A stretch of DNA of 64,000 nucleotides. Origin: Candidatus Yonathbacteria bacterium (GTDB taxonomy: Bacteria; Patescibacteriota; Minisyncoccia; Phycocordibacterales; JACNGX01). Shown here piece by piece: positions 582-64,000 of the stretch. Below the pieces are notes generated by a model, which had not been told where the DNA came from, made no database searches, and worked only from the letters and a program-made list of their open reading frames with translations. The stretch spans positions 34,025 through 98,024 of the forward strand of contig JAAXWR010000002.1 of assembly GCA_013334825.1 (NCBI GenBank), written 5' to 3'. Each line of letters opens with the position of its first letter. The stretch's first letter is position 1. The position numbers were made by a program, and so were the translations under genes.

Positions 582-927
582 AAAACGTGAAGTAAGCACA
601 CAGATGCGTTTTGAGGTAGGAATATGAATGTAGGGACACTCGAATCAAGAATTAAGGGTTACGAAGTACGAACTTATACGAACATACGAAACTGGACGGG
701 ATGAAGGGTTACGAAGTATGAACTTGTACGCTTGTCCTGCACTCTACGTGGACTGCTGTGCATCCTACGTGGTGCACAGTGCACAGTTCAGGGAACATAC
801 GAATACTACTCAACATGATAGATTCTTCTCAATAGTCCGTGTTCGTATGTTCGTACTCGTTCGTACTTCGTAACCGATCTTGCAACTTAACACTCGCAAC
901 TCACCATTCATTTGGTATACTATATTC

Positions 928-3693: not shown

Positions 3694-3933
3694 ATCAAGA
3701 AGCACGAAGCAAGAATAAACGATGAAGGGAGGGAATAGAAGTTGGGAACATGGAGAAAGAATGATTTCTCAGACATCCGCACGACACGGATGCGGTTCTC
3801 AGAACAAGTAGCGTCTATTTTTTAAGAACTACGAACTACGAACTAAGAACTATGTAGGGTGTATGGCAAGCTTCCAACTCATATGCTATGATACCGGCAT
3901 ATTTATCCGTTATTTCACCAGAGTATTTTACAT

Positions 3934-4542: not shown

Positions 4543-5086
4543 AAGAATAGAAAACAATTATAAACAACAACGGGACGGGGCGAAAGCCCCGTCCCGTATT
4601 CGTATGTTCCCTGTAGCACGTGGGGTGCAGGGCAAGCGTACAAGTTCGTACTTCGTAGCCCGTCTCTAGTACAGCGTAGGGTGCAGGGCAGGGCGTAATT
4701 TTTAATTCAGCATTCATAATTTATACACAGTTTCCTTTTTCTCATGTTGTATCGTGTGTTCGTTCTACGAACTAAGAACTACGAACTACGAACTTGTGTT
4801 CGTCCATGTTCCACTACACCAACTTTTCTCATGCTTGTCATGCTTGCGTATCTTTTTTCGAGAATTATACTGATAGGGGGTTGCTACGGGTATTTTCTAG
4901 GACAAATCGTTTTTTCAGGGAGTCCGATGTTACTGCGCGCTTTGGTGCGTATGTTCAGGACACCCACCTGGCAATACGCTAGGGAATGCCCGGTTTATGC
5001 AACCCCTCAAAAGTCGTCCATCGTTCTTTCCAAGAATGCTGGACGTTTTTTGTTTGTTCTTTTCTTTCCTGTGATATACTTGTTGT

Positions 5087-13002: not shown

Positions 13003-13183
13003 TTTTTCTTAGGATTTTGAGGTTGTGGAAAGGACTTTGTTAAGTGGACTATAGCATACTTTTCTGGTTTTGGGAAGGGGTATATCGCAGGAATGCCCGT
13101 TACTGTTTTTTTGTATGAAGCCCTATATTTCAACATGACTTTTTATACACAGGTGTATTTAAAATATTTTTTGATTTGATATT

Positions 13184-13579
13184 ATGAAGTACATGAAGGA
13201 CTTTCTTATGTGGATACAACAAAAAATAACATTGGATAGGAGTATTCATCGTCCCCCTTTTGTTTCTGAAGGTGATATATGGTGGGCATCTATCGGAGAA
13301 AATATTGGTTCAGAAATTTGAGGAAAGAGTTCTCTTTTTTCAAGACCAGTGATTATTTATCGTAAACTTGTTCATGGTTTTTATTTTGTCATACCGACGA
13401 GCACAAAGGAAAAAGAAGGAAGTTGGTATGTCCCATATCAACATAAAGGTGTAAAAAATGTTGCGTGTTTACACCAAGCTCGCGCTGTTGATCATCGCTG
13501 TATTTAAAATAAATTAGGCACATTAGATGATAGGGACTTCGAATTGGTTCGTCAAGGTTTTCATGATTTGTATAAATAA
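13184..13579 (+). pseudogene. MazF/PemK-family toxin pseudogene, single frame interrupted by in-frame TGA and TAA
   Basis: One frame reads 'MKYMKDFLMWIQQKITLDRSIHRPPFVSEGDIWWASIGENIGSEI*GKSSLFSRPVIIYRKLVHGFYFVIPTST…VKNVACLHQARAVDHRCI*NKLGTLDDRDFELVRQGFHDLYK*'. This matches the MazF/PemK pattern (GDIVxVDF…GSEQ/GxRPxLVxS…I/CPIT…) with two internal stops. There is no upstream antitoxin ORF. Confidence 0.5.
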
Positions 13580-13721
13580 CAATATTCCCCGCCCTTATGG
13601 GCGGGGTCGCGGGACAATCCCGAATGTATGTTAAGTGTATATGAGGTATAAAAATTGTGTAACTATTTAAAGGAGTCCATAAATGCGCACAACATTTATA
13701 GGGTATCGACCCCGCAGTTAT

Positions 13722-13821
13722 CCAGCTCCACTTTCATAATAAACACACATGCTATGATAGATTTTTTATCCGAGACGTGAGTATTGTTTATAGATAAAGT
13801 CTTTTATGAAAGTGGGGCTGG
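13722..13821. repeat. 100-nt palindromic element with 16-nt terminal inverted repeats CCAGCTCCACTTTCAT / ATGAAAGTGGGGCTGG (copy 1 of 2)
   Basis: The same termini and the same 100-nt length recur at 58244-58343 with an unrelated interior. The termini resemble tmRNA/tRNA acceptor ends (…CCAGCUCCAC / GGGGCUGG…). Confidence 0.6.
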
Positions 13822-13834
13822 ATGCTCCTGGGCG

Positions 13835-13872
13835 CCGAGCACCACTTTTATAACGATAAAAGTGGTGCTCGG
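13835..13872. repeat. Hairpin repeat CCGAGCACCACTTTT-N8-AAAAGTGGTGCTCGG (family member 1 of 3)
   Basis: Near-identical stems recur at 59017-59052 and 60411-60447. All are adjacent to tRNA or tmRNA sequences. Confidence 0.6.
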
Positions 13873-13873
13873 T

Positions 13874-14186
13874 TCGATACCCCCACGCGAGCCGAGCAGT
13901 CGGCTCGCTCATCTCCACACGCAAAACAACAAACCACCCTTTCGGGTGGGTTGTTTTGGTGTGGAGATGGGGGGTATTGGTCAGGAGTCCGTGAAAATCA
14001 TAGTCGCTTTGCTCCTTGATTTTCTACGGCTCACGACCCTGGCTCGGCGACAAGCACTCGCACGCAAGCGTGCTCGTCTTGTGTACCGCCTCCGCCTTTC
14101 GATACCCCCAGCGAAAAGCTCGCTTTTCGCTTCACATCTCCAATCCATAAAAAAGAAACACCTCTTTAAAGAGGCGCTTCTTTTTT
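13874..14186. repeat. Array of tmRNA-terminus-like modules, each followed by an A-run/hairpin/T-run terminator. Modules: 13874-13921 + terminator 13922-13956; 3'-end copy 13957-13974; 14095-14136 + terminator 14150-14186
   Basis: The motif 'TTCGATACCCCC-A-[short hairpin]-CATCTCCA' occurs twice (its reverse complement is GGAGATG-[hairpin]-GGGGGTATCGAA). A second copy 'CCCCCCATCTCCACACCA' of the authentic tmRNA 3' end 'CCCCCCATCTCCACCA' lies 230 nt downstream of the real one. Confidence 0.5.
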
Positions 14187-14187
14187 A

Positions 14188-20499: not shown

Positions 20500-20690
20500 G
20501 ATATATTTTTTATTTTATCTTTTTGCTTTTTATAGTTCATAGTTTATCGTTTATATTTTTCTTTTTATAGTTTATCGTCCATTATTTTTAATTTTAGTTT
20601 TTATTTTTTCTTTTTATAGTTTATCTTTTTTATTTTATTTTTTATTTTAAAAAAGTTATCCACATTTTTTTCAAAAAAAATATTGTCATC
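20500..20690. repeat. AT-rich imperfect tandem repeats (units like CTTTTTATAGTTTATCGT) in the upstream region of the histone-like gene
   Basis: Several repeated units are visible. They are in reverse-complement orientation relative to the R4 purine-rich word repeat seen elsewhere. Confidence 0.6.
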
Positions 20691-20811
20691 GTGCGCAATG
20701 TGTACGATAATAGAAAGAGAAAAAGTTTTTTCGTAAGAAAAAATTTTTCCGAAAATATTTTTCAGACCATGTGGTCGACATTATTAGAGATAACTTTGTA
20801 TGACTATCATT

Positions 20812-20967
20812 ATGGCAGCAGCAAAGAAGAAGATCGTAAAGAAGGCGGTAAAGAAAGCAGCCCCGAAGAAGGCCGTTAAGAAGACCGTCAAGAAGGTTGC
20901 AAAGAAGACCGTTAAGAAGGCGGTAAAGAAAGCAGCCCCGAAGAAGAAGGTTGCGAAGAAGAAATAA
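20812..20967 (+). CDS. Lysine/alanine-rich histone H1-like DNA-binding protein (51 aa), not in the ORF track
   Basis: ATG GCA GCA GCA AAG AAG AAG … reads MAAAKKKIVKKAVKKAAPKKAVKKTVKKVAKKTVKKAVKKAAPKKKVAKKK*. A strong terminator AAAAACCCGCTC-GTTTGA-GCGGGTTTTT follows at 20985-21015. Confidence 0.6.
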   Translation: MAAAKKKIVKKAVKKAAPKKAVKKTVKKVAKKTVKKAVKKAAPKKKVAKKK

Positions 20968-21061
20968 TCTTCATCCCACTTCGGAAAAACCCGCTCGTTT
21001 GAGCGGGTTTTTCCGTGTATGATGTAAGCATGCATGAAAAGAAAGTCTATGGTACCATGGA

Positions 21062-25293: not shown

Positions 25294-25557
25294 AGAGAGA
25301 AGAAGTATGTGGTAGCACATAAAAGAAATAATTTCTTTTGCGCATCTTGTACACCCTCTACAGAAAGTTCTTAGTTCGTAGTTTGTAGTTCTTAGAGCGA
25401 CGGACGACGACTTGTGGGATTTTTGTTTTTAGTTTTTTATCGTTTGTCGCTTATAGTTTTCTTTTCGATATTTCATATTCCTCATCTATTGTTTGTTTTA
25501 TCAACAGAAAAAAGAAGAAGAGTGCGCGTGAACATGTTATGATAGAAGTATTATCAA

Positions 25558-28002
25558 TTGTCTCGCATATTGTGTATGAAAAAAGAAAAACAACTTCCCA
25601 TTGTGTTGTGGTTTAAAGATGTCGGCAATGACGATGTTGCTCTTGTCGGTGGAAAAAATGCGTCATTGGGAGAAATGTATAATATTCTTACGCCACAAGG
25701 CGTGCGTGTCCCGAATGGGTTTATTGTGACTGCGCATGCATATGACTTGTTTATCAAAAGCACAGGTCTCGCCGAACTCATTACCAAAGAATTGAAAGGA
25801 CTAAATACAAATGATGTCGCACTCTTGCAAAGAAAAGGCAAAAAGATTCGTACCGCATTCATGCGCAAGCGTATGCCAAAGGTGATTACTGATGAAATTA
25901 GAGTTGCGTATCGTACACTCTCGCGTACATATGACATGAAGCATGCTGATGTCGCAGTGCGTTCCTCCGCGACCGCCGAAGACTTACCAGGAGCATCGTT
26001 TGCAGGAGAACATGACACCTATCTCAACGTCCGTGGAGAAGAATATGTTATTCGTGCGGTTAAACGTGCGTTTGCGTCGCTCTTTACTGATAGAGCGATT
26101 TCCTATCGTGTGGACAAGGGATTTAAGCATGGCGATGTCAAACTTTCTGTTGGCATACAAAAGATGGTACGCAGTGACCGTGCGTGTTCGGGAGTTATGT
26201 TCACCCTTGATACAGAAACGGGATTTCGTAATGTTGTTGAAATATCATCTGCGTGGGGACTTGGTGAAATGGTCGTGCAAGGAAAAGTAACACCTGATGA
26301 ATATGTCGTGTTCAAACCATCACTCCGTGCGGGGAAAAATGCCATACTCAAACGTACTAGAGGAGAAAAGAAAACAAAAATGATATATGGTGAGACGCGT
26401 GGAGAGCCGACGCGTATTGTTCGCGTACCTGAGGCAGATATGTCAGTACTCACTCTTACTGACGAGGAAGTTATCATACTTGCGAAGTGGGCACTTATTA
26501 TTGAAGACCATTATTCTCTTCGCGCCAAAGAAGACCGCCCTATGGATATGGAATGGGCGAAGGATGGTGTGTCGGGAGAACTCTTTATTGTGCAGGCACG
26601 TCCCGAGACAGTACAAGCAGAGAAAGCAAAGAAAGGGCTTTCATATACGGAATACATGCTGGGCAAGACATCAAAAAAACCTATTGTAGAAGGTGTTGCT
26701 GTAGGAACAAAAATTGCTTCAGGATGCGCGCGTGTTATTGTGGACGCACGTCGTCTCGATGAATTTAAAGAAGGAGAAGTGCTCATTGCTGCGATTACTG
26801 ATCCGACATACGAGCCGATTATGAAAAAAGCAGCCGCTATTATCACGGAAAAAGGAGGACGTACATCACATGCGGCGATTGTATCACGTGAACTCGGTAT
26901 TCCTGCGGTTGTGGGAACAGGGAATGCGCGTAAAAAAATTGCGACAGGCGATATTGTTACTGTTGATACATCATCGGGAGACGTGGGACGTATTTATGAA
27001 GGACGTATTCCATGGCGAGAACATACCTATGACCTCAAGAAAGTTCCCACAACAAAAACGCATATTTGTCTCAATGTCGGTGATCCGGAGAGCGCGTTCA
27101 AAAATAGCTTCTTGCCACATCGCGGTGTTGGGCTTGCGCGTGAAGAGTTTATCATTGCCTCGCACATTGGCATTCATCCACTTGCACTTATTGATTATGA
27201 TAAGCTGACTGATTGGAAATTGAAAAAGAAGATAGATGAAAGGACGGAAGGGTATGATGATAAGACAGCATTCTTTGTTGATAAACTTGCTGAGGGCATC
27301 GCACATATCGGTGCGGCATTTTGGCCGGAACAAGTGATTGTGCGCTTTTCTGATTTCAAGACGAATGAATACAGAGCACTTCTCGGTGGAGAACTGTATG
27401 AACCGGAAGAGGAGAATCCTATGATTGGATGGCGTGGAGCGTCACGATACGCGCACCCGGATTATCGTGAAGGGTTTAAGCTTGAAGTAGAGGCGATAAA
27501 ACGGGTGCGTGATGATATGGGTATTGATAACGTGCATGTCATGGTACCGTTTTGTCGGACGCCGGAAGAAGGAGAAAAGGTTGTGGAACTTATGGAAGAG
27601 TATGGTTTGGGACGTAGTAAAAAGAAGCAGGGACTCAAGATATATGTGATGTGTGAAATTCCGACCAATGTCATCCGTGCAGATGATTTTCTTGATATCT
27701 TTGACGGTTTTTCTATCGGGTCAAACGACCTTGCTCAACTGACACTCGGACTTGATCGTGATTCCGCAATTATTGCGGGTATCGGTAATGAAAATGATGA
27801 GTCAGTCAAGGCACTTGTTTCGCAAGCGATTAAGTCATGTAAGCGACGCAAGAAATATATTGGTTTTTGTGGACAAGCTCCTTCAGACTATCCAGACTTT
27901 ATGCGTTTTCTTGTTCAAGAAAAGATAGAAGCGATATCACTTAATCCTGATACGGTCATACCGATGACCATAGAAGCAGCAAAAGCGGAGAAGAGAAAGT
28001 AG
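25558..28002 (+). CDS. ppsA: Phosphoenolpyruvate synthase (pyruvate, water dikinase)
   Basis: Conserved PEP-synthase N-terminus 'VALVGGKNASLGEMY', phosphohistidine domain 'GGRTSHAAIVSRELGIPAVVG', and a C-terminal PEP-utilising TIM barrel. Confidence 0.9.
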   Translation: MSRILCMKKEKQLPIVLWFKDVGNDDVALVGGKNASLGEMYNILTPQGVRVPNGFIVTAHAYDLFIKSTGLAELITKELKGLNTNDVALLQRKGKKIRTAFMRKRMPKVITDEIRVAYRTLSRTYDMKHADVAVRSSATAEDLPGASFAGEHDTYLNVRGEEYVIRAVKRAFASLFTDRAISYRVDKGFKHGDVKLSVGIQKMVRSDRACSGVMFTLDTETGFRNVVEISSAWGLGEMVVQGKVTPDEYVVFKPSLRAGKNAILKRTRGEKKTKMIYGETRGEPTRIVRVPEADMSVLTLTDEEVIILAKWALIIEDHYSLRAKEDRPMDMEWAKDGVSGELFIVQARPETVQAEKAKKGLSYTEYMLGKTSKKPIVEGVAVGTKIASGCARVIVDARRLDEFKEGEVLIAAITDPTYEPIMKKAAAIITEKGGRTSHAAIVSRELGIPAVVGTGNARKKIATGDIVTVDTSSGDVGRIYEGRIPWREHTYDLKKVPTTKTHICLNVGDPESAFKNSFLPHRGVGLAREEFIIASHIGIHPLALIDYDKLTDWKLKKKIDERTEGYDDKTAFFVDKLAEGIAHIGAAFWPEQVIVRFSDFKTNEYRALLGGELYEPEEENPMIGWRGASRYAHPDYREGFKLEVEAIKRVRDDMGIDNVHVMVPFCRTPEEGEKVVELMEEYGLGRSKKKQGLKIYVMCEIPTNVIRADDFLDIFDGFSIGSNDLAQLTLGLDRDSAIIAGIGNENDESVKALVSQAIKSCKRRKKYIGFCGQAPSDYPDFMRFLVQEKIEAISLNPDTVIPMTIEAAKAEKRK

Positions 28003-28004
28003 GA

Positions 28005-28340
28005 ATATGAAAAGTAAATGCGGAACAAACGCGGAAGCTCGCGGAACGGACGCGGAAGAAACAAGAAGTATGAATCACGGAATGAGAATTAAGCTCGCCC
28101 TGCACCCTACGTTGCCTGCTGTGCATCCTACGTGGCTTGCTGTGCATCCTACGTGGTGCACAGTGCATAGTGCTGGGGAATATACGAATGATGAAGAAAA
28201 AAGGTAGACGATGAAATAAGAAAATAGAAATATGAAGACGAAAACTATAAATGGTAAAAAGAAAAAATAAAAATGGTAAACTATGAACTATGAAAAACAT
28301 ACTAAAAATAAAAGCGGACATAGTGTCCGCTTTTTCTGTG
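28005..28340. repeat. Composite intergenic repeat element (copy A). Order: 'gcggaa' words, a multi-hairpin block (CCCTGCACC-CTACGT-…GGTGCA…), 'acgaa' words, a purine-rich R4 block (GATGAAATAAGAAAATAGAAATATGAAGACGAAAACTATAAATGGTAAA), and a bidirectional terminator AAAAGCGGACA-TAGTG-TCCGCTTTT at 28309-28336
   Basis: The same modular order recurs at 41777-42115 and 56207-56530. Partial versions occur at 600-880, 4600-4700 and 31310-31560. Confidence 0.7.
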
Positions 28341-28362
28341 TTCGTGTCACAGACTACCAGGT

Positions 28363-28746
28363 CTACCAGGTATATACTCGATATACTCCTGTTTCTTTAG
28401 GTATCTTTACGGGAGGTGGTCTCAGACTCTGTCCAGAAAGCCGAACGAGTTTTTTCACGATGGGGTGGGTGGTGTCCGCATCGGTAACAGTTCCGATGTA
28501 GGGGTCTCCGCTGAATATAGTATGACCTGACACAGGGTCAGATGATGTCAGTCTCATATTTCCCCACTCAGTGAAAGCTTCCCTTTTTTTATCCTCCATG
28601 GAAGACACATGGGGGAGTTTCAAGAACTTCGTCCGCACACAGAGTCTTCCAGCAGAATCTTTTACAATACCGTCCTCATCTCTTTTTGTTTCTGTCCAGA
28701 TGAGATACCAGTCGCAAACAGTTGCTCGCTTTTCTTTTTTTGACAT
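28363..28746 (-). CDS. Hypothetical protein (127 aa)
   Basis: Intact ORF convergent with ppsA. No motif recognised. Confidence 0.4.
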   Translation of the reverse strand: MSKKEKRATVCDWYLIWTETKRDEDGIVKDSAGRLCVRTKFLKLPHVSSMEDKKREAFTEWGNMRLTSSDPVSGHTIFSGDPYIGTVTDADTTHPIVKKLVRLSGQSLRPPPVKIPKETGVYRVYTW

Positions 28747-29131: not shown

Positions 29132-30154
29132 ATGCATTATATGAAGATTATTAGTTTCTCCAATGAAGAGTGGGAAAAAGACTTTCTTTCAAAGCATCTT
29201 CCCGCACACACATTCATCTTTGTGGATGGGTTTATGCAAGACCGTACCGATGTCTCTGACCCAGATGCAGAGATTGTTTCTGTGTTTGTGAGTTCACATG
29301 TGGGCGCTACGGAGATGGATCGCTTTCCGTCACTGAAGTGTATCGTGACGCGTTCGACAGGGTTTGACCATATTGACCTTGCCGAAGCTCTGAAGCGCGG
29401 CGTTGTCGTATCCAACGTGCCAACATACGGTGAGAATTCAGTTGCAGAGATGGCGTTCGCGCTTCTCCTTGCGCTCTCGCGTCGTATTTATGATAGTTAC
29501 AAGCAGGTTGTTGAGACGAGTAGTTTTTCACCAAAAGGGCTGACCGGCTTTGATTTGAAAGGCAAGACATTGGGTGTTGTTGGGACAGGACATATTGGTG
29601 TGTATGCGATTAAGATCGGCAAAGGATTTGGTATGGATATTGTCGCGTATGACCCCTTCAAAAATGATGCACTTGCGAATGAACTTGGCTTTCGGTATGT
29701 CGGTTCGTTTGATGAGCTTCTTGGTATGTCTGATGTTATTACACTCCACGTGCCACATAACGAGCATACGCACCACATGATCAATATGGATAATATCGAG
29801 AAGATCAAGAAAGGTGCCGTTCTCATCAACACCGCGCGTGGGCCAGTGGTAGAGACCATCGCAATGGTGAAAGCGCTTGAAGAGGGGATACTTGCGGGAG
29901 CAGGGCTTGATGTGCTTGAAGAAGAAGATTTTCTTCTCGATGAAGATGCACTTCTCCATATGGAACATCCGAATGGTGAGAAACTTAAGAACGTACTCGC
30001 CAATCAATATCTGATTGACCATCCACGTGTCATTGTGACACCACACAATGCGTTTAACACCAAAGAAGCACTCGAACGCATTCTTGCAGTAACTGTTGAA
30101 AACATTGAAGCGTGTGTAAGTGGAGCGCCGAAGAACGTCGTTAAAAGTTCTTAG
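29132..30154 (+). CDS. D-isomer-specific 2-hydroxyacid dehydrogenase (D-lactate/glycerate/hydroxypyruvate reductase-like), NAD-binding
   Basis: 'GKTLGVVGTGHIGVYAIKIGKGFGMDIVAYD' Rossmann motif and catalytic R/E/H context '…INTARGPVV…PHNA…'. A terminator AGCGGGGCGTGGGACC-TTCG-GTCCCACGCCCCGCT follows at 30188-30223. Confidence 0.85.
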   Translation: MHYMKIISFSNEEWEKDFLSKHLPAHTFIFVDGFMQDRTDVSDPDAEIVSVFVSSHVGATEMDRFPSLKCIVTRSTGFDHIDLAEALKRGVVVSNVPTYGENSVAEMAFALLLALSRRIYDSYKQVVETSSFSPKGLTGFDLKGKTLGVVGTGHIGVYAIKIGKGFGMDIVAYDPFKNDALANELGFRYVGSFDELLGMSDVITLHVPHNEHTHHMINMDNIEKIKKGAVLINTARGPVVETIAMVKALEEGILAGAGLDVLEEEDFLLDEDALLHMEHPNGEKLKNVLANQYLIDHPRVIVTPHNAFNTKEALERILAVTVENIEACVSGAPKNVVKSS

Positions 30155-30322
30155 TTCGTAGTCCTTGGTTCGTAGAGACGAAAAGCGGGGCGTGGGACCT
30201 TCGGTCCCACGCCCCGCTTGCGCTTACAGTCTATAACCTATAAGCTATAAGCTATTCACCTACAGCCTAATCTCCTCACATACTAACCTCCTAATCTCCT
30301 ATTCTCCTAACCTCCTATCATT

Positions 30323-31303
30323 ATGGCATTTACCGACGAATATCAATTTGAATCAAAAGCGGGCAAGGGCGGCGATGGCGTCGTTCGTTGGCGTCATGAA
30401 AAGTCTCGAGAGTTCGCAGGCCCTGCCGGTGGTGATGGTGGTCGGGGTGGTGATGTATATATACGCGCGGTGCGTGATATCGCGCTTCTTTCCAAGTATC
30501 GCAATAAAACACGATTTGATGCGGAGGACGGACATCCAGGAGAAAAGAAGAGTATGAAAGGAAAAAATGGCGAAGATTTGTATATTGAATTGCCAGTCGG
30601 CTCTGTGGTTACTAATCTTGATACGCACGAAATCTTTGATCTCACGCATGAAGGCGATACGTTCATGGTTCTCGCGGGTGGGCAAGGAGGATACGGTAAT
30701 GAGAACTTCAAAAGTTCACGCAATATCACACCCAAACAAGCGACCACGGGAAAGCCAGGGCAAGAAGGACGTTTCGCGGTTGAGCTCCGTCTCATTGCAG
30801 ATATTGGTCTTATTGGACTACCGAGCGCGGGCAAGTCTTCACTCTTGAATGCGCTCACGCACGCAGATGCGAAAGTTGGTGCCTACGATTTTACCACACT
30901 CGAGCCAAACCTTGGTGTGATGTATGGTATTGTGCTTGCGGATATTCCCGGACTCATTGAAGGGGCATCAGAGGGAAAAGGACTCGGACATAAATTTCTT
31001 CGTCATGTACGCCGGACGCATATTTTGGCGCACTGTGTCTCGTGTGAACATGATGATATCACAAGCGCTTACCATACTATCCGCGAAGAATTAAAACGAT
31101 ATGATGAAACGATGTGTGAGAAACCAGAGATACTCATTCTTACCAAGACAGATATGTGCAGTCCTGAAGAACTTTCGGAAAAAATAAAAGAAGCAAAAAA
31201 GCTTTCTCAGCATGTGGAAACAGTAACACTGTATGATGATGAATCAGTGAAATATATTGGTGGTGTATTTGCACGACTTGAGAATGAGAAACTAGGAATA
31301 TAA
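30323..31303 (+). CDS. obg: GTPase Obg/CgtA
   Basis: Obg fold N-terminus 'FTDEYQFESKAGKGGDGVVRWRHEKSREFAGPAGGDGGRGGDVYI…' and G-domain 'GLPSAGKSSLL'. Confidence 0.9.
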   Translation: MAFTDEYQFESKAGKGGDGVVRWRHEKSREFAGPAGGDGGRGGDVYIRAVRDIALLSKYRNKTRFDAEDGHPGEKKSMKGKNGEDLYIELPVGSVVTNLDTHEIFDLTHEGDTFMVLAGGQGGYGNENFKSSRNITPKQATTGKPGQEGRFAVELRLIADIGLIGLPSAGKSSLLNALTHADAKVGAYDFTTLEPNLGVMYGIVLADIPGLIEGASEGKGLGHKFLRHVRRTHILAHCVSCEHDDITSAYHTIREELKRYDETMCEKPEILILTKTDMCSPEELSEKIKEAKKLSQHVETVTLYDDESVKYIGGVFARLENEKLGI

Positions 31304-31563
31304 ATATAGGAAAGAGGTTAGAGGTGATAGGGGCGGACAGGAATGTAGGAGAGAGGTTATAGGTTATAGGGACGAACACTCGAATCAAGCGTGCCCTGCA
31401 CCCTACGTGGTGCAGGGAATTAAGGGTTACGAAGTGCGAACTTGTATGCTTGCCCTACATTTCGCGTGGTGCTAGGAAACACACTTGAAACGGGACGGGA
31501 ATCAAAAGATATGAAATCAGGAATATGCTGTGTATCAAATAAAAAACCGCACGACAGTGCGGT

Positions 31564-35702: not shown

Positions 35703-35881
35703 GAGACACCTCGTTTTTTTGTTGTACGTTACCAGTTTTTATTATACCCAATGTATATACAGAAGATATGGTATACTGTGTACAAGGTTTATGCTGGTTT
35801 TTGTTTGATGTCAAGTTTCTCGCATACTAACCCCCTAATTTACCAATCTCCTGATATCCTAATTTACTAACCTCCTACCTT

Positions 35882-36922: not shown

Positions 36923-37026
36923 AAATTACAAGTTTCAAGAACGGTTACGAATAATGAGTATGTAGAAAATAGCCATCTTTTCCTTTCCTAATCTCCTAAT
37001 TTCCTAATCTCCTAACATACTAATTT

Positions 37027-37494: not shown

Positions 37495-38023
37495 TGAATT
37501 ACGAATTATGAATATTGAAGCAAAAGAATTTAAACAGCTTGTCGATCTGGTGTATAGTGCCCATCAAGAACATAATACGCGCAAGGACTATAGACAGGAG
37601 GGCACAGTACCGTTTGTTGTACATCCTTTGTGGTGTGCACTCACTCTTCTTAATGATCAGCGTATTCCGTTTGAGGAGCGTCGCATCGGATATCAAGCAC
37701 TTCTTTTACATGATGTGTTAGAGGATACGGATATGGATATACCAGAGGATATTTCTCGTGAGGTTGTTGCGTTAGTGCAAGAAATGACACATGCCTCATG
37801 GGATGACGAACAAAATATCTCAGGTAAAAGTCATATCGTAAAATTATTGAAGCTCACAGACAAAATTGCCAGTATGTATGATGAGACAGTCCGTCCAGAC
37901 CCAGTTCGTCGACGACAATGGAAGGAATTAATAGAGCGTTTGTTGGCTGATGTTGAAGTACACTATGGAAATATCCGATTAGTGACACTTGCAAAAGCGA
38001 TTCTTGCCGATACAGATTGGTAA
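37487..38023 (+). CDS. HD-domain phosphohydrolase (small, standalone)
   Basis: HD signature 'H…LLHDVLEDT'. Overlaps rpiB by 8 nt. Confidence 0.65.
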   Translation: MNNELRIMNIEAKEFKQLVDLVYSAHQEHNTRKDYRQEGTVPFVVHPLWCALTLLNDQRIPFEERRIGYQALLLHDVLEDTDMDIPEDISREVVALVQEMTHASWDDEQNISGKSHIVKLLKLTDKIASMYDETVRPDPVRRRQWKELIERLLADVEVHYGNIRLVTLAKAILADTDW

Positions 38024-39628: not shown

Positions 39629-39820
39629 ACGAAGTTTCAAGTTGTTAGTTTCAAGTTGCTAGATTGGTTACGAAGTACGAACGAGTACGAACATACGAAC
39701 ATAAACTCACCAATATAGTTGTCCATGTTCAGTAGCGTTCGTATGTTCCCTAAACCGCGTAGGGTTCAGGGCAAGCGTATAAGTTCGTACTTCGTAATCT
39801 AATATTATTTACTGTACTAT

Positions 39821-40312: not shown

Positions 40313-40669
40313 ATGCAGTACGATCTTGAAAACAGAACAAAAATTTTTAGCAAGGAGGTGATTATGTTCTTAAAACGTTTACAGAAGGATGAAATAAATA
40401 GACATATCATTTCTCAACTTGTTCGTTCGGCGACTAGTGTCGGTGCGAATTATTGTGAAGCAAATGGTGCTAGTTCACAGAGAGATTTCAAACATAAAAT
40501 ATTTATCTGTAGAAAGGAAATTCAAGAAACAAAATATCGGTTAGAATTAATTGCAGAATCGAATAAAGACGAAAAAGATAGTGTTGAAAAATTATGGAAA
40601 GAAGCTCATGAATTAACTCTCATTTTTAATAAAATATCAACAACACTAAGGGAACGCACTGAAAAATAA
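40313..40669 (+). CDS. Four-helix-bundle protein (TIGR02436; the '23S rRNA intervening-sequence protein' family)
   Basis: '…EINRHIISQLVRSATSVGANYCEANGASSQRDFKHKIFICRKEIQETKYRLELI…' is the family signature. Confidence 0.8.
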   Translation: MQYDLENRTKIFSKEVIMFLKRLQKDEINRHIISQLVRSATSVGANYCEANGASSQRDFKHKIFICRKEIQETKYRLELIAESNKDEKDSVEKLWKEAHELTLIFNKISTTLRERTEK

Positions 40670-41776: not shown

Positions 41777-42115
41777 GGAATACGAATGTAGGAAATAGGT
41801 TAGAGGTGGTAGGGACAGATATTCGAATCAAGTGTGCCCTGCACCCTACGTGGTGCAGGGAATCATGAAGCAAGAATACGAGAGGCGAATAAAAAAAATA
41901 TGAGCATACGAATAACGAATGTGTACGAATATACGAATGACAAAGAAACGATAAATTATAAAAAAAACTATAGACAATGAAATAAGAAAATAGAAATATG
42001 GGAAGAGAAAACTATAAATGGTAAACGATAAAAGAAAAGAGTCGTATTCGTACATTCGTACGTATTCGTTATTCGTAAGCATTCTTGAAACTTGCAACTG
42101 ACAACTTAAAACTCG
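41777..42115. repeat. Composite intergenic repeat element (copy B)
   Basis: Contains 'ggttagagg' words, the palindrome CCCTGCACC-CTACGT-GGTGCAGGG (41837-41860), 'acgaata' words, and R4 'GAAATAAGAAAATAGAAATATGGGAAGAGAAAACTATAAATGGTAAACGATAAA'. The module order is the same as in copies A and C. Confidence 0.7.
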
Positions 42116-42116
42116 T

Positions 42117-55555: not shown

Positions 55556-56206
55556 ATGGCTGAAACAGGAGGACCATTTATCAATCTTGAATACGTGTTT
55601 TACAAAGTCTACACGTGGATATTTGGTGTACCCTCTGGGACGGGAGAAACAGGAACGTTGGGAGGAGACGGAGGGGCAGGAACGATTTCCATGGGGGACG
55701 GGGGGCTTGTGAACACAGGGAATGGAGTTGATATAGAGATGCTTGTTGAAATATTAAAAAATATTCTTGGCTTTATTACGCTTCTGCTTATTATTGGACT
55801 TGGTTTTATTATTGTACGCATTTGGGAACTTCATAAGGAGATGAAGAAAAAGCCCACATTTGCTGAACCAGAACATGTTGAAAAGACAAAAGAAAATGAA
55901 CGATGGGAAGTCGTCCGCATGCACGTTGCATCGAGCGTTCCGTCTGATTGGCGTATGGCGATTATTGAAGCGGATAATATTCTTGATGACATGGTAAAAC
56001 GTATGGGATACGAGGGAAAAGATTTGGGTGAACGGTTGCGTGCCGTGGAGCCGAGTGATTTTCTGAGTATTCAAAGTGCGTGGGAGGCACACAAGGTGCG
56101 CAACAAAATTGCTCATGAAGGGTTGGGATTTGAGATATCTCAACGCGAGGCAAAACGCGTGATTGATTTATATGAACAGGTGTTTCGGGAGTTTGAGTAT
56201 ATTTAG
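55556..56206 (+). CDS. Hypothetical membrane-anchored protein with a Gly-rich N-terminus, one TM helix, and a C-terminal alpha-helical domain carrying an Rx4H (HEPN-like) motif
   Basis: TM 'ILGFITLLLIIGLGFIIV', and a C-terminal '…SIQSAWEAHKVRNKIAHEG…' with R-x4-H spacing. The HEPN assignment is tentative. Confidence 0.4.
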   Translation: MAETGGPFINLEYVFYKVYTWIFGVPSGTGETGTLGGDGGAGTISMGDGGLVNTGNGVDIEMLVEILKNILGFITLLLIIGLGFIIVRIWELHKEMKKKPTFAEPEHVEKTKENERWEVVRMHVASSVPSDWRMAIIEADNILDDMVKRMGYEGKDLGERLRAVEPSDFLSIQSAWEAHKVRNKIAHEGLGFEISQREAKRVIDLYEQVFREFEYI

Positions 56207-56530
56207 ATGTGAAATGAGAAAATAGAAATGAGGAATATGGGATGGGTTACGAAGTACGAACTTGTACGCTTGCCCTGCACCCCACGTGGCGTGCTGTGCA
56301 TCCTACGTGGTGCATAGTGCTAGGGAACATACGAAACGAGACTAGAAGCAAGAATCAAGAAGCACGAATAAAGAAGAAAACGATGAAATATGAAAATAGA
56401 AATATGAAATATGAAGATGAAAACTATAAACGGTAAACGATAAAATGAAAAAGTTAAAAAAAAGAAAGACAGTGTTCAATACAATGTAAAAAAATAATCC
56501 CGCGGCTTCCGCCGCGGGATTATGAGTTAC
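56207..56530. repeat. Composite intergenic repeat element (copy C). Includes a terminator AATCCCGCGGC-TTCC-GCCGCGGGATT at 56496-56525 that serves the minus-strand gene 56527-56700
   Basis: The module order is the same as in copies A and B. The R4 block 'GATGAAATATGAAAATAGAAATATGAAATATGAAGATGAAAACTATAAACGGTAAACGATAAA' is present. Confidence 0.7.
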
Positions 56531-56700
56531 TTGGGCAAGGGCATTCGGCGCTTTGCAGAAAACCATGCCCAGTATTTACTCATCCCTGTCCCATCAGGAA
56601 CAAGGATATATTTTTCATGGCGCAAGCACCTTGAACAGGTGCGCGTATGACCGGAAGTCATCCAGTCGTGTATCCCAAGAAAACATAAGATTTTTCCCAT
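56527..56700 (-). CDS. Small zinc-ribbon protein (57 aa), phage-type C-x-x-C … CxRCG family
   Basis: 'MGKILCFLGIHDWMTSGHTRTCSRCLRHEKY…'. It is a paralogue of the next small gene (shared C-F-x-x-H-x-[WY] … C-x-[RK]-C-G pattern). Confidence 0.45.
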   Translation of the reverse strand: MGKILCFLGIHDWMTSGHTRTCSRCLRHEKYILVPDGTGMSKYWAWFSAKRRMPLPK

Positions 56701-56730
56701 AATGTAGCTCCTCATGATGTTTTGTTTTAA

Positions 56731-56834
56731 GAAAGAACTAAAACTTTTTGAGTATTCGATTCACAGAGAATCAAATCCTCAAAAAGTTGCCGGAGGAGGG
56801 GAGAAAAAATTTCCTCTCCTCCGGCTGTGGCTAT
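56731..56834. repeat. Direct repeat 1 (about 103 bp): a stop-codon-plus-terminator cassette shared by two minus-strand genes
   Basis: Near-identical to 57105-57207. It contains the palindrome CCGGAGGAGGGGAGAAAAAATTTCCTCTCCTCCGG and ends exactly with the stop codon (cta) of gene 56831-57073. Confidence 0.75.
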
Positions 56835-57073: not shown

Positions 57074-57104
57074 AATAAGCTCCTTTTTATTATTTTCTTT
57101 TTTG

Positions 57105-57207
57105 AGAAGAACTACAACTCTTTGAGTATTCGATTCACAGAGAATCAAATCCTCAAAAAGTTGCCGGAGGAGGGGAGAAAAAATTTCCTCTCCTCCGGCT
57201 GTGGCTA
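57105..57207. repeat. Direct repeat 2 (about 103 bp), the same stop-plus-terminator cassette at the 3' end of the DEDDh exonuclease gene
   Basis: About 96% identical to 56731-56834. It ends with the exonuclease stop codon. Confidence 0.75.
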
Positions 57208-57723
57208 TTTGACGAGGTGGCGGTACACCGCCGCTGCGACAGCGGAGTCGTAGAGCGGATTGTGTGTCCCGCCCTCAAACTCGCCGACCGATAGTCCGTG
57301 CTTGGCGACAAACTTGTCCACTGAGGTGGGGTCTGCGCCGGCAGCCTGCAGATTTCCGCTGACATCGTAGAGCGGGAACGGGCCGTCCCAGTCCCCGATG
57401 AGGTCAAGCTCATGCATGTCGCGCAAGAGTTTGGCCTCGACGATGTAGCCCATGTGGACCACGACGTCGGCCTCACCCTTGTTCGCCATGTAGAACGTGG
57501 CAAAATCACGGAGCATTGAAGAGTAATCCTCGTGTGTCACCGTGATACCCTGTACCTGGGGCAGGGTGTTCTCACGGCTCCACTGGTCGGTTACAACCGA
57601 TTCAGGAAGCCGCGCCTCAAAGCGGGCGATCTCGACACCGTTCTCGTCGTAGACGAGGGCGCCGATTGCCCACGCCTGTCCCCAGAGACCGTTGGTCTCC
57701 GCGTCAAAAGAAAAAATTTTCAT
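57205..57723 (-). CDS. DEDDh-family 3'-5' exonuclease (oligoribonuclease/epsilon-like), GC-rich
   Basis: Exo I 'FDAETNGL', Exo III 'HNPLYDSAVAAAVY' (H-x4-D). The gene's GC content (about 60%) is clearly above the window average of about 45%. Confidence 0.7.
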   Translation of the reverse strand: MKIFSFDAETNGLWGQAWAIGALVYDENGVEIARFEARLPESVVTDQWSRENTLPQVQGITVTHEDYSSMLRDFATFYMANKGEADVVVHMGYIVEAKLLRDMHELDLIGDWDGPFPLYDVSGNLQAAGADPTSVDKFVAKHGLSVGEFEGGTHNPLYDSAVAAAVYRHLVK

Positions 57724-58343: not shown

Positions 58344-58603
58344 CGAAGTGGGGCAGAGCATACGTTTATATAAGTATTTTTTCCGCAATATTCCCCCAGC
58401 ACTATGTACCACGTGGATGCACAGCAGGCCACGTGGTTGCACGGCACACTACGTGAGATGCCGGGCAACTGCGTAGTATTTGTGTAAGTTCCGCGTGTTT
58501 CTGCGTTCATTCCGCATCGCTTCCGCGTCATGCAAAACTTGCGTTTCTCCTCATAATATAGTACCCTATGGTGCATCGTCCCAAGTGGGCGAAACACTAC
58601 ATT

Positions 58604-58917: not shown

Positions 58918-59125
58918 TCTATCGCGAGCCGACTGGATTTGAACACGTAGGGGGTCGGGGGCGGCGGAACGCCCCCGTGAAGGAGGTTACGTGGAACCGT
59001 GGGTTCTACGAGCGCACCGAGCACCACTTTCATAAATGAAAGTGGTGCTCGGGAGCAGTGAATATTCCGGTCGGCCGCGCATAACAAAAAGAGGTTGGCT
59101 TTTGCCAATCTCTTTTTGTGTATAC
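58918..59125. repeat. tRNA-fragment mosaic and att-like scar: an inverted tRNA-Asp-like T-arm/acceptor fragment (58920-58945), a GC hairpin, a CCGAGCACCACTTTCAT-AA-ATGAAAGTGGTGCTCGG hairpin (59017-59052), then a direct duplicate of the tRNA-Asp 3' end plus terminator (59064-59122)
   Basis: 'TCCGGTCGGCCGCGCATAACAAgAAAGggcTGGCTTTTGCCAgccCTTTCTTGTTAT' at 58860-58917 recurs as 'TCCGGTCGGCCGCGCATAACAAaAAGAggtTGGCTTTTGCCAatcTCTTTTTGT' at 59066-59122. Confidence 0.6.
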
Positions 59126-60410: not shown

Positions 60411-60447
60411 CCGAGCACCACTTTTGCCATTGCAAAAGTGGTGCTCG
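60411..60447. repeat. Hairpin repeat CCGAGCACCACTTTTGC-CAT-TGCAAAAGTGGTGCTCG (family member 3), preceded by GGGGATCGAA and palindromic hairpins
   Basis: The same stem as at 13835-13872 and 59017-59052. The preceding 'GGGGATCGAACCGAGCACC' mirrors 'GGGGGTATCGAACCGAGCACC' in the tmRNA-scar region. Confidence 0.6.
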
Positions 60448-63272: not shown

Positions 63273-63499
63273 CATAAGCCTCTTGCCTGTGCATTTCGTC
63301 CCACGCTCTTTTTGGTGTATACTTATATGAGTAAGATAGTATATTAGTAAGTAGTACGTTAGTATACGAATATGAAAATATATGAGGGTTACGGATGGGA
63401 TGGATTATTTTTTTGTATTCTTTATCTCTTTGCATACTAACCTCCTAATTTCCTATCATACTAACTTCCTAATCTCCTAACATACTAACCTCCTACCTT

Positions 63500-64000
63500 A
63501 TGATTCGCTTCGACAATGTTTCAAAAGAATATCGCGACAATGGTAACAGCATCACGAATGCACTCTATGACATCACGCTTGGAGTGGAGCAGGGCGAATT
63601 TGTTTCTATTGTGGGACATTCTGGTGCGGGTAAGACAACGCTTCTTAAAATGCTCCTTGCTGAAGAATCACCGTCTACGGGTGCGGTGTTTTTTGAGGAA
63701 GTCGATATTCACGGCCTTTCAAACAAAGAGATACCCCAACTTCGTCGCCGTATCGGGACAGTCTTTCAAGATTTCAAATTGCTCCCCAATAAAACAGCAT
63801 ATGAAAATATCGCATTCGCAATGGAAGCCGCGGGTCGTAGTGATGAAGAAATTGCTGCTGATGTGCCACAAGCACTTGAGCTTGTTGATCTCGGAGACAA
63901 GGTGTGGAACTTTCCCCACCAGCTTTCTGGGGGTGAACGTCAGCGCATTGCCATTGCACGTGCCATCATCAACCAACCTGATTTACTTATTGCTGACGAG
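63500..64000 (+). CDS. ftsE: Cell-division ABC transporter ATP-binding protein FtsE (3'-truncated by the window edge)
   Basis: Walker A 'GHSGAGKTT', Q-loop, ABC signature 'LSGGERQRIAIARA', Walker B 'LLIADE'. It is not in the ORF track because no stop lies within the window. Confidence 0.85.
   Translation, partial: MIRFDNVSKEYRDNGNSITNALYDITLGVEQGEFVSIVGHSGAGKTTLLKMLLAEESPSTGAVFFEEVDIHGLSNKEIPQLRRRIGTVFQDFKLLPNKTAYENIAFAMEAAGRSDEEIAADVPQALELVDLGDKVWNFPHQLSGGERQRIAIARAIINQPDLLIADE

Follow-up and report, generated by a model that had tools for sequence, protein, structure and literature searches.

We analyse a 64-kb stretch of Candidatus Yonathbacteria DNA (taken whole, and called the window below) and focus on three long intergenic composites within it, at 28003-28345, 41777-42116 and 56207-56526 (copies 1 to 3), each combining a short hairpin, arrays of repeated words and an A/G-rich block that we call R4. 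We find the three to be copies of a mosaic intergenic repeat family in one Yonathbacteria-related Parcubacteria lineage, comparable to bacterial interspersed mosaic elements (BIMEs), BOX elements and Correia elements. Their identity as a lineage-specific mosaic repeat family is well supported; the fuller reading, in which the copies also act as RNA structure modules, is the one we prefer and hold with moderate confidence.

An earlier sequence-only reading of this DNA had described at least three full copies, listed nine partial or reversed pieces elsewhere, and taken the conserved order of the modules as a sign of a functional unit and not of low complexity. All three stretches are present where that reading placed them, with purine-rich words, hairpin block, ACGAA words and R4 in the order it gave; family modules occur in all nine of the listed pieces, and a fourth, reversed composite missing from its list lies at ~58390-58535 and is 73% identical to 28003-28185 (Table 1). 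What the three long composites have in common is two well-conserved modules, the hairpin and R4, with degenerate word arrays between them. When the three are aligned, mean column identity is 63%: the hairpin core and R4 hardly vary, and the word regions can be aligned only loosely. These two blocks, together with motif counts far above chance, bear out the distinction from low complexity: CCCTGCACCCYACGTGG has 14 matches at <=3 mismatches against 0.06 expected, the internal hairpin unit GCTGTGCATCCTACGTGG has 6 against 0.02 (100-300-fold over shuffled expectation for the hairpin motif and its internal unit), and the 24-nt R4 core ATGAAATAWGAAAATAGAAATATG has three exact copies and one near copy against 0 expected. 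Dispersed module pairs within the window are 88-96% identical. The word repeats, in contrast to these modules, are general to intergenic DNA and not special to the composite loci.

The hairpin, CCCTGCACC-CYACGT-GGTGCAGGG, has a 9-bp stem and a 6-nt loop, with GCTTG or GYGTG as its 5' flank and AAY as its 3' flank. A covariance model of it matches eight sites in the 64 kb at E <= 1e-4, all of them intergenic and none in coding DNA, with five on the plus strand (750, 28134, 31388, 41831, 56288) and three on the minus strand (4603, 39742, 58396). Pairing is preserved in variants such as CTGTGCATC/GGTGCACAG and CCATGCACC/GGTGCATGG. Because the sequences were chosen for pairing, only changes on both sides of a pair are informative, and such changes are found at 5 of the 9 stem pairs (22 cells, versus 3.2 in shuffles); the stems appear from this to be kept by compensatory changes. 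In some copies the hairpin is expanded through tandem 21-nt units and, in its 3' arm, through TGCAYAG heptamers, as in copy 1, where the block (minimum free energy, MFE, -38.7; z -2.3) is resolved by Tandem Repeats Finder (TRF) into 2.7 copies of period 21 with 91% matches and holds a covariance-model match at 28134-28169 (44.7 bits). The number of TGCAYAG heptamers varies between copies, and even against the ortholog in L106, one of 106 loci that we fetched for comparisons with relatives and other genomes (L numbers throughout), this arm differs by about one unit (a 6-nt gap). We considered a CRISPR array for the 21-nt units and rejected it, as they are contiguous, without spacers, and no cas genes are present.

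How the hairpin sits among the words is seen most clearly from the TACGAA unit, a ~41-nt element (GGTTACGAAGTACGAACTTATAC joined to GAACATACGAA..) that is found 'empty' at 657-697, 39666-39706 and, reversed, at 835-875. A filled unit equals an empty one plus a clean 28-nt insert made up of GCTTG and the hairpin, or 57 or 63 nt where the hairpin is expanded. The hairpin is thus a discrete insertion into the unit. Empty units also occur as inverted pairs, which give stems of 35-41 bp and bound forms of ~140-220 bp (657-875, 39666-39800, L098, L101). As in MITEs (miniature inverted-repeat transposable elements), these are terminal inverted repeats on an element shorter than ~300 bp: 657-697 and 835-875 are 41 nt long and 85% complementary, and a similar pair lies within 39666-39800 as well as in L098, L101 and L104/L106. 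Folded as RNA and compared with mononucleotide shuffles, whole spacers reach z-scores of -5.6 (642-880), -4.4 (39629-39810) and -8.3 (the spacer of copy 2, MFE -84.7).

The positions of these elements relative to genes follow a pattern. All three long composites sit between convergent genes. In window copies that adjoin a stop codon, the purine-rich, CYACGT-bearing strand is the sense strand; of the hairpin sites, the three in reverse are found within co-directional spacers, in the half nearer the promoter. The earlier claim that each composite finally ends in a terminator holds fully for copy 1 only. The candidate in copy 3 fits the terminator consensus on the minus strand alone, and copy 2 has no canonical terminator but, instead, a 35-bp inverted repeat of TACGAA words around R4.

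R4 is a block of ~60-75 nt composed of GAAATAA-type heptamers; it is predicted to be unpaired in whole-spacer folds, and its three copies differ by gaps of 6-7 nt. It had been called homopurine, and triplex or H-DNA had been suggested for it. Strand asymmetry is indeed strong, both in R4 and in the pyrimidine-word arrays (1 G in 55-79 nt), which is what such a non-B structure of homopurine-homopyrimidine blocks would draw on. Measured purine content, however, is 75-79%, the longest uninterrupted purine run in R4 is only 5-12 nt, there is no long mirror-repeat homopurine-homopyrimidine tract, and purine runs of at least 12 nt are common all through the window's coding DNA. We therefore reject triplex formation on composition and give it a negligible probability. 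The same asymmetry leaves long stop-free frames on the pyrimidine-rich strand (27956-28321, 41846-42097 and 56342-56566, all minus), artefacts that would be called as spurious genes; coding potential over R4 was considered and rejected, as the 6-7-nt gaps between R4 copies break the frame.

The word arrays give intergenic DNA a periodicity of its own. Self-identity at lags of 7, 14 and 21 nt is 0.344, 0.310 and 0.296 against a baseline of ~0.28, while coding DNA shows period 3 only. Among the arrays that TRF finds are many degenerate ones whose period is 7 or 8 and whose consensus words differ (GAAGCAA, GAACTAC, CTACGAA, AGTTCGT, TGAATAA and AATTTTC among them); arrays of period 7 and 14 number 3.75 per 10 kb in the window and 3.3 in close relatives, as compared with ~1.1-1.4 in other loci, whether or not these come from the Candidate Phyla Radiation (CPR). 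Beside hairpin blocks, GCGGAA or GCAGAA is repeated four times with a spacing of 11-10-11 nt that is kept in three copies (28019-28057, 58480-58535 on the minus strand, and L101 at ~830-870); spaced at about one DNA helical turn, the words may form a DNA-binding array. Separately, CTAAYCTC octamers, C-rich and almost free of G, reach the ATG of obg, gap, rpiB and a gene at 63500 (30259-30322, 35827-35881, 36972-37026 and 63421-63499). Could the arrays in general be protein-binding sites, with the 7-8-nt words serving a single-strand binder of the cold-shock-domain, S1 or KH type and the GCGGAA words a DNA-binding regulator? Strict periodicity combined with variable word sequence would suit such a role, as would the conserved GCGGAA spacing and the G-free octamers abutting starts in a genome nearly devoid of Shine-Dalgarno sequences, the setting proposed for TAACTGA repeats (PMC4679880). 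Yet no candidate protein was identified, the words are too heterogeneous for one specific binder, and unit number changes freely between strains, so that we rate this explanation as very unlikely.

Comparison with relatives shows how quickly the composites change. The spacer downstream of ppsA, which holds copy 1, is 360 nt long in the window but shorter in L093 (130 nt) and L096 (121 nt), whose ppsA genes are 96% (amino acids; 87.7% for nucleotides) and 84% identical to that of the window. We take these spacers to be positionally orthologous, since each genome compared has at this place a small convergent gene that evolves fast (E 1e-6, 3e-7). Those of L093 and L096 contain a few A-rich words and terminators, with neither hairpin nor R4, and a covariance-model scan for the hairpin across ~63 kb of relatives without the composite gives no match. 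Spacers that can be aligned differ by indels of exactly 7 nt, as against L093/L094, or of other word-sized pieces. L098, from a strain 90-96% identical, has a ~190-nt MITE-like copy between rpiB and rpe (411-615) where the window has an HD-domain-like open reading frame (ORF; 37509-38023), both variants following the same GAATAAT/GAATTAT heptamers; with the ppsA spacer of L093 and L096, this gives two cases of insertion polymorphism between related genomes, as is typical of MITEs. L100 and L105 are ~99% identical, yet a module of ~110 nt differs between them. A metagenome scan for the internal hairpin unit finds nine contigs of the same lineage, all from one Joint Genome Institute (JGI) sample series, with the same modules in other combinations; samples that contain the lineage are JGI 3300020083/3300020084 and the Ga0194119, Ga0194126, Ga0194127 and Ga0209835 metagenomes. 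Judged from these sequences, structural turnover of the modules is fast. Because relatives have no composite in the orthologous spacer and module content differs even between ~99% identical strains, we view it as a dynamic mosaic repeat and not as a fixed 3'-untranslated-region (3'-UTR) RNA.

This result bears directly on another proposal, that the composites encode a discrete regulatory RNA, either a small RNA derived from the 3' UTR or a cis-acting 3'-UTR element, in which R4 would be a single-stranded seed or protein platform and the hairpins scaffolds. The recurrent module order, the terminator that ends copy 1, the nearly invariant and predictedly unpaired R4 core in three copies, and one strongly conserved ortholog (discussed below) are all consistent with it. 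Against these stand the relatives' spacers without the composite, the variable order and number of modules, the reversed copies (3 of the 8 hairpins), the missing terminator of copy 2 and the fact that no promoter consensus stands out. Moreover, the exact 3' segment of R4, GAAAACTATAAAYGGTAAA, is found in none of the 106 fetched loci, and Rfam offers no match: at gathering thresholds the window yields only the tmRNA and tRNAs, and an E-value scan of 27950-28400 gives chance-level matches, none at gathering score. We consider a discrete RNA unlikely. Among the functional units that the sequence-only reading had offered, the single conserved unit or small RNA is unsupported, whereas a REP/BIME-like element (REP, repetitive extragenic palindromic sequence) fits best, because the hairpin is dispersed in both orientations, the content is mosaic, copies differ in presence and absence, and stem changes are compensatory.

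Outside the lineage, the hairpin raises a question of its own. An exact 17-mer scan with one genome per species returns 92 loci, about the chance number, but the complete hairpin is present at ~30 of them, where the chance per locus is ~1/16,000. The hosts include several classes of CPR, Planctomycetes (Pirellulales and others, one genome having five loci), metagenome-assembled genomes (MAGs) of Syntrophaceae and other Deltaproteobacteria, and some gammaproteobacterial MAGs; the 24-nt hairpin is identical at L006, L015, L018, L025, L030, L031, L034, L037, L040, L043, L053, L056, L058, L067, L071, L084, L086 and L089-L092. At these loci the hairpin often has sibling hairpins as neighbours, whose ACC/GGT closing pairs and ACRTNG-type loop are conserved and whose outer stem co-varies. 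YTTG is frequent as the 5' flank, and in some genomes the hairpin is accompanied by a T-run. An all-against-all BLASTP of the ORFs at 30 of these loci finds no common protein family, Rfam gives no match at the hairpins of four loci, the full 24 nt has 0 matches in IMG/VR viral contigs, and a hairpin-dimer BLAST against plasmids and phages returns chance matches only. Searching the literature for the hairpin in DNA or RNA form turns up unrelated primers only, and for CPR with REP or MITE no earlier description. We suggest, as a speculative and rather doubtful possibility, that the stem-loop (G)CTTG-CCCTGCACC-CYACGT-GGTGCAGGG is an undescribed cross-phylum nucleic-acid signal, like a REP without its tag but with loop and ACC/GGT closing pairs conserved, and recognised by a widespread factor, which in this lineage has been combined with heptamer arrays into strongly constrained functional modules. 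At three of the loci (L071:680-1122 on the minus strand, also L090:296-390 and L067), a duplicated tRNA 5' half broken in the anticodon (..GGACTTA, then the break) is followed directly by a hairpin pair, after which come, in L071, an ORF and a complete tRNA-Leu(UAA); the tRNA half looks like the scar of an insertion into the anticodon loop.

One ortholog departs from the general turnover. Window positions 642-900 are 98.8% identical to L106 over 253 nt, a figure that comes from a single strain pair of metagenome assemblies, and the next spacer, 3694-3933, is 98.2% identical (both compared with L106:8628-12555). For the flanking genes the overall identity is 90.7%, and at third codon positions it is only 75-77%. 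In a 100-nt profile, identity rises to 0.98-1.0 at these two spacers. Within the type IV coupling-protein-like gene that lies between them, segment 2703-3002 is only 71-73% identical to L106. Concerted evolution, that is, homogenisation within the genome, was considered as the source of the 98.8% and rejected, as paralogous copies are less alike (80-96%). The explanations that remain are purifying selection, or recombination between strains that is limited to the spacers.

With this in hand, we can weigh the possibility that the family is purely selfish or neutral DNA, non-autonomous hairpins or MITEs with slippage debris, without host function and located at gene ends merely because insertions are tolerated there. 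Much of the above would be expected of such DNA: the differences between close strains in presence, absence and module number, the clean 28-nt insertion, the hairpin in both orientations with no bias across phyla, and the want of a linked protein family or an Rfam match. What it does not readily accommodate is an ortholog so well conserved where third positions stand at ~76%, which gene conversion does not explain given the divergence of the paralogs, the compensatory changes that keep stems, and the single orientation of all stop-codon-adjoining window copies, with the reversed ones promoter-proximal. We regard it as a possible explanation, though not a probable one.

Our preferred reading adds a role in RNA structure to the mosaic repeat. 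In it, modules would be generated by slipped-strand duplication; a mobile, non-autonomous mechanism, or else recombination at words that spacers share, would copy them from one spacer to another. The long composites, lying between a stop codon and a terminator shared with the convergent gene, would be co-transcribed as 3' ends, where the hairpins and long stems could block 3' exonucleases, provide double-strand processing sites or insulate neighbouring units. The G-poor antisense strand could in addition favour termination of antisense read-through, since antisense transcripts, poor in G and rich in C and U, would be a plausible substrate if Rho is present. What leads us to favour RNA structure modules is that the composites lie in presumptive 3' ends, that their stems are maintained and their double-stranded arms long, and that one ortholog is strongly conserved.

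Several observations weigh against this reading. Co-transcription, and with it any role at the RNA level, is something that we infer. No family hairpin in the window is followed by a U-tract, AAT or AAC standing there instead, so the hairpin is not an intrinsic terminator; 3 of the 8 hairpin sites are reversed and promoter-proximal; and across phyla the orientation of the hairpin relative to flanking genes is ~7:7 (on a crude ORF map), which argues against a strictly strand-specific RNA role of the hairpin itself. As to mobility, the flanks of five complete copies have no common direct repeat that would indicate a target-site duplication, and a Pfam scan of 60 window ORFs finds no transposase, integrase or RAYT (the Y1/HUH transposase whose gene REPs usually flank); nor is an autonomous parent insertion sequence with the same termini seen in motif and covariance-model contexts across the window and ~140 kb of lineage contigs. 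Finally, the 98.8% identity to L106 comes from one strain pair, and spacer conservation is not general: the gap-rpiB spacer is 82.5% identical where the flanking genes are 95% identical.

The family is best filed with elements of the REP/BIME, BOX and MITE kind, here in a CPR genome. REP and BIME sequences of Proteobacteria (PMC3733652, PMC2817692) are likewise short GC-rich extragenic stem-loops, dense (here 8 sites in 64 kb), in both orientations, built into composite mosaics with other short motifs, placed at gene ends, variable between strains and marked by compensatory stems. The window hairpin, a multicopy 24-nt extragenic palindrome, has such a stem-loop core. A GTAG or CGTC terminal tag defines the two REP super-families (PMC3733652); no unpaired tag of this kind is present at either stem end here, GT[AG]G being found solely inside the 6-nt loop, the sequence of which is conserved. 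Further differences from REP are that no RAYT is seen in the window and that the window hairpin recurs in several phyla. BIMEs have regularly spaced REPs of alternating orientation with defined linker motifs between them. Adjacent hairpins in the window are nested or in tandem in one orientation, with word arrays as linkers; those in other phyla have their loops in opposite orientation.

BOX elements of Streptococcus pneumoniae are modular repeats of the form boxA-boxB(n)-boxC. Our composites resemble them as ordered modular spacer elements of a few hundred bp with a variable internal tandem module, a predicted stable fold and a position at gene ends, but are unrelated in sequence, have 21-nt and 7-nt units inside the hairpin and word arrays as the variable modules, and include an A/G-rich unstructured block. 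In Neisseria, RNase III cleaves the long double-stranded stems of mRNAs that contain Correia elements (CREE/NEMIS). The ~140-220-bp forms at 657-875 and 39666-39800 are comparable in their terminal inverted repeats (GGTTACGAAGTACGAAC...), predicted long double-stranded stems and strain insertion polymorphism; they differ in having no TA or other target-site duplication and no evident promoter elements, and in that their inverted repeats are word arrays that also occur singly. The word arrays themselves recall the heptamer repeats of cyanobacteria (STRR, short tandemly repeated repetitive sequences). TAACTGA intergenic heptamers occur in Beggiatoaceae, Cyanobacteria and Bacteroidetes (PMC4679880), and in Beggiatoaceae they are described upstream of starts. 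Shared with both are tandem direct heptamers (in the window also octamers) confined to intergenic DNA, often upstream of starts without a Shine-Dalgarno sequence and with strain-variable copy number. In the window, however, TAACTGA is absent among the TRF consensus units, the words are many (GAAnnAn, TACGAAn, AGTTCKT, CTAAYCTC) and degenerate, and they form composites with hairpins and show strand asymmetry with respect to gene ends.

Table 1. Members of the repeat family and adjoining terminators in the window; bit scores are those of the hairpin covariance model.
Feature	Coordinates	Strand	Details
Copy 1 purine-rich words	28003..28096	+	four GCGGAA words (~28019-28057), then GAAnnAn-type; 71% purine; TRF period 10-11
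Copy 1 expanded hairpin block	28097..28174	+	CCCTGCACC-CTACGT.., two 21-nt units (..GCTGTGCATCCTACGTGG), TGCAYAG heptamers, end ..CTGGGG
Copy 1 R4	28198..28273	+	GAAATAA-type heptamers
Bidirectional intrinsic terminator	28310..28334	.	closes copy 1; serves convergent gene 28363-28746(-)
Copy 2 GGTTAGA/GGTGGTA purine-rich words	41777..41830	+	82-88% identical to 31282-31420
Copy 2 simple hairpin CCCTGCACC-CTACGT-GGTGCAGGG	41831..41866	+	z -3.9; 47.9 bits, E 1.6e-10
Copy 2 inverted TACGAA arrays	41904..42080	+	41904-41938/42046-42080, 35 nt, 89% complementary; enclose R4 41964-42041
Copy 3 purine-rich words (TGAAATGAGAAAATAGAAATGAGGAATATG)	56207..56240	+	
Copy 3 TACGAA unit with expanded hairpin block	56241..56335	+	90% identical to 703-782, 96% complementary to 4617-4664; 41.9 bits
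Copy 3 GAAGCAA heptamers, then R4	56344..56452	+	
Copy 3 terminator-like hairpin	56494..56523	-	U-tract on minus strand only; serves convergent gene 56527-56715(-)
MITE-like form	642..880	+	empty TACGAA 657-697, filled unit with hairpin block 707-803, spacer, inverted unit 835-875
Two reversed hairpin units	4595..4700	-	after ndk terminator; 35.8 bits
obg-downstream array	31304..31520	+	GGTTAGA words, simple hairpin, TACGAA unit, degenerate hairpin; 49.5 bits
Reversed MITE-like form	39629..39810	-	empty TACGAA 39666-39706 (plus-strand reading) pairs with reversed filled unit 39799-39738; 39.6 bits
Reversed composite	58390..58535	-	GCGGAA words and triple hairpin block, upstream of rpmG; TRF period 20; 25.9 bits, E 1e-4
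Reversed R4-like heptamer arrays	20504..20650	-	
AGTTCKT heptamers, then reversed R4-like block	25366..25482	-	upstream of ppsA; exact 7-nt difference in heptamer number from L093/L094
obg-upstream array	30146..30322	+	AGTTCKT heptamers, conserved terminator, CTATAAG heptamers, G-free CTAAYCTC octamers abutting obg ATG

The gene setting of these features is that of a bacterial genome segment with a GC content of ~43%, in which the plus strand carries nearly all genes and a tmRNA and five tRNAs are present. Its ppsA (phosphoenolpyruvate synthase) shares 84% identity with the homologue in a MAG of Candidatus Yonathbacteria, and for many further homologues from Parcubacteria/Paceibacteria the value is 63-67%; the closest sequences (96%) are on short JGI metagenome contigs. 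According to Pfam, the 60 ORFs encode mainly housekeeping, type IV pilus and uncharacterised small proteins. Earlier labels for the genes preceding the composites were reasonable for ppsA and the C-terminal half of transketolase, but the 'HEPN-like' gene (55556-56206) has no Pfam match. Shine-Dalgarno motifs (GGAG, GAGG or AGGA at -6 to -16) are found at only 2 of 54 starts when the upstream 40 nt are inspected window-wide, and at many of these start codons a TATACT/TATAAT-like -10 box lies 6-17 nt before the ATG, which suggests Shine-Dalgarno-independent and partly leaderless initiation.

Several other features of the window deserve mention. The transketolase is split, and between its N- and C-terminal halves lie an ORF with a tRNA_bind domain and a gene of the '23S rRNA intervening sequence protein' family (40313-40669), the latter flanked by inverted AATTTTC heptamer arrays (40243-40277/40714-40748, 35 nt, 89% complementary). 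A second hairpin family, CCGAGCACCACTTT..AAAGTGGTGCTCGG, occurs near tRNA genes at 13835-13871, 59017-59053 and 60411-60447 and adjoins fragments resembling tRNA T-arms. Beside the tmRNA, 13003-14187 is a gene-poor stretch of 1.2 kb with the appearance of decayed ORFs. Downstream of two small minus-strand ORFs is a 115-nt direct repeat (56720-56834 and 57094-57208, 93% identical) that holds the hairpin GCCGGAGGAGGGGAGAAAAAATTTCCTCTCCTCCGGC. A small lysine/alanine-rich ORF at 20784-21035 (minus) consists of 12/24-nt tandem repeats (AAGAAGRCNGTN) and has no Pfam match, with a resemblance to histone-H1-like basic proteins. The DnaA box TTATCCACA occurs once, the chance level.

What do these repeats mean for the organisms that carry them? 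At the level of annotation, the elements yield long spurious ORFs on the pyrimidine-rich strand, and gene callers should mask them. Heptamer periodicity, the filled-versus-empty comparison of the hairpin insertion and the recurrence of the same hairpin in Planctomycetes, Deltaproteobacteria and several CPR lineages offer handles on how such repeats originate and spread. Two puzzles, the cross-phylum hairpin and the unusually conserved ortholog, could raise the importance of the family. CPR genomes are small and thought to be streamlined, and dense, fast-rearranging mosaic repeats show that spacer DNA in them is not pared down to a minimum, nor static. Should these repeats shape the ends of transcripts, they would constitute an unrecognised layer of expression control in organisms that seemingly initiate translation without Shine-Dalgarno sequences.

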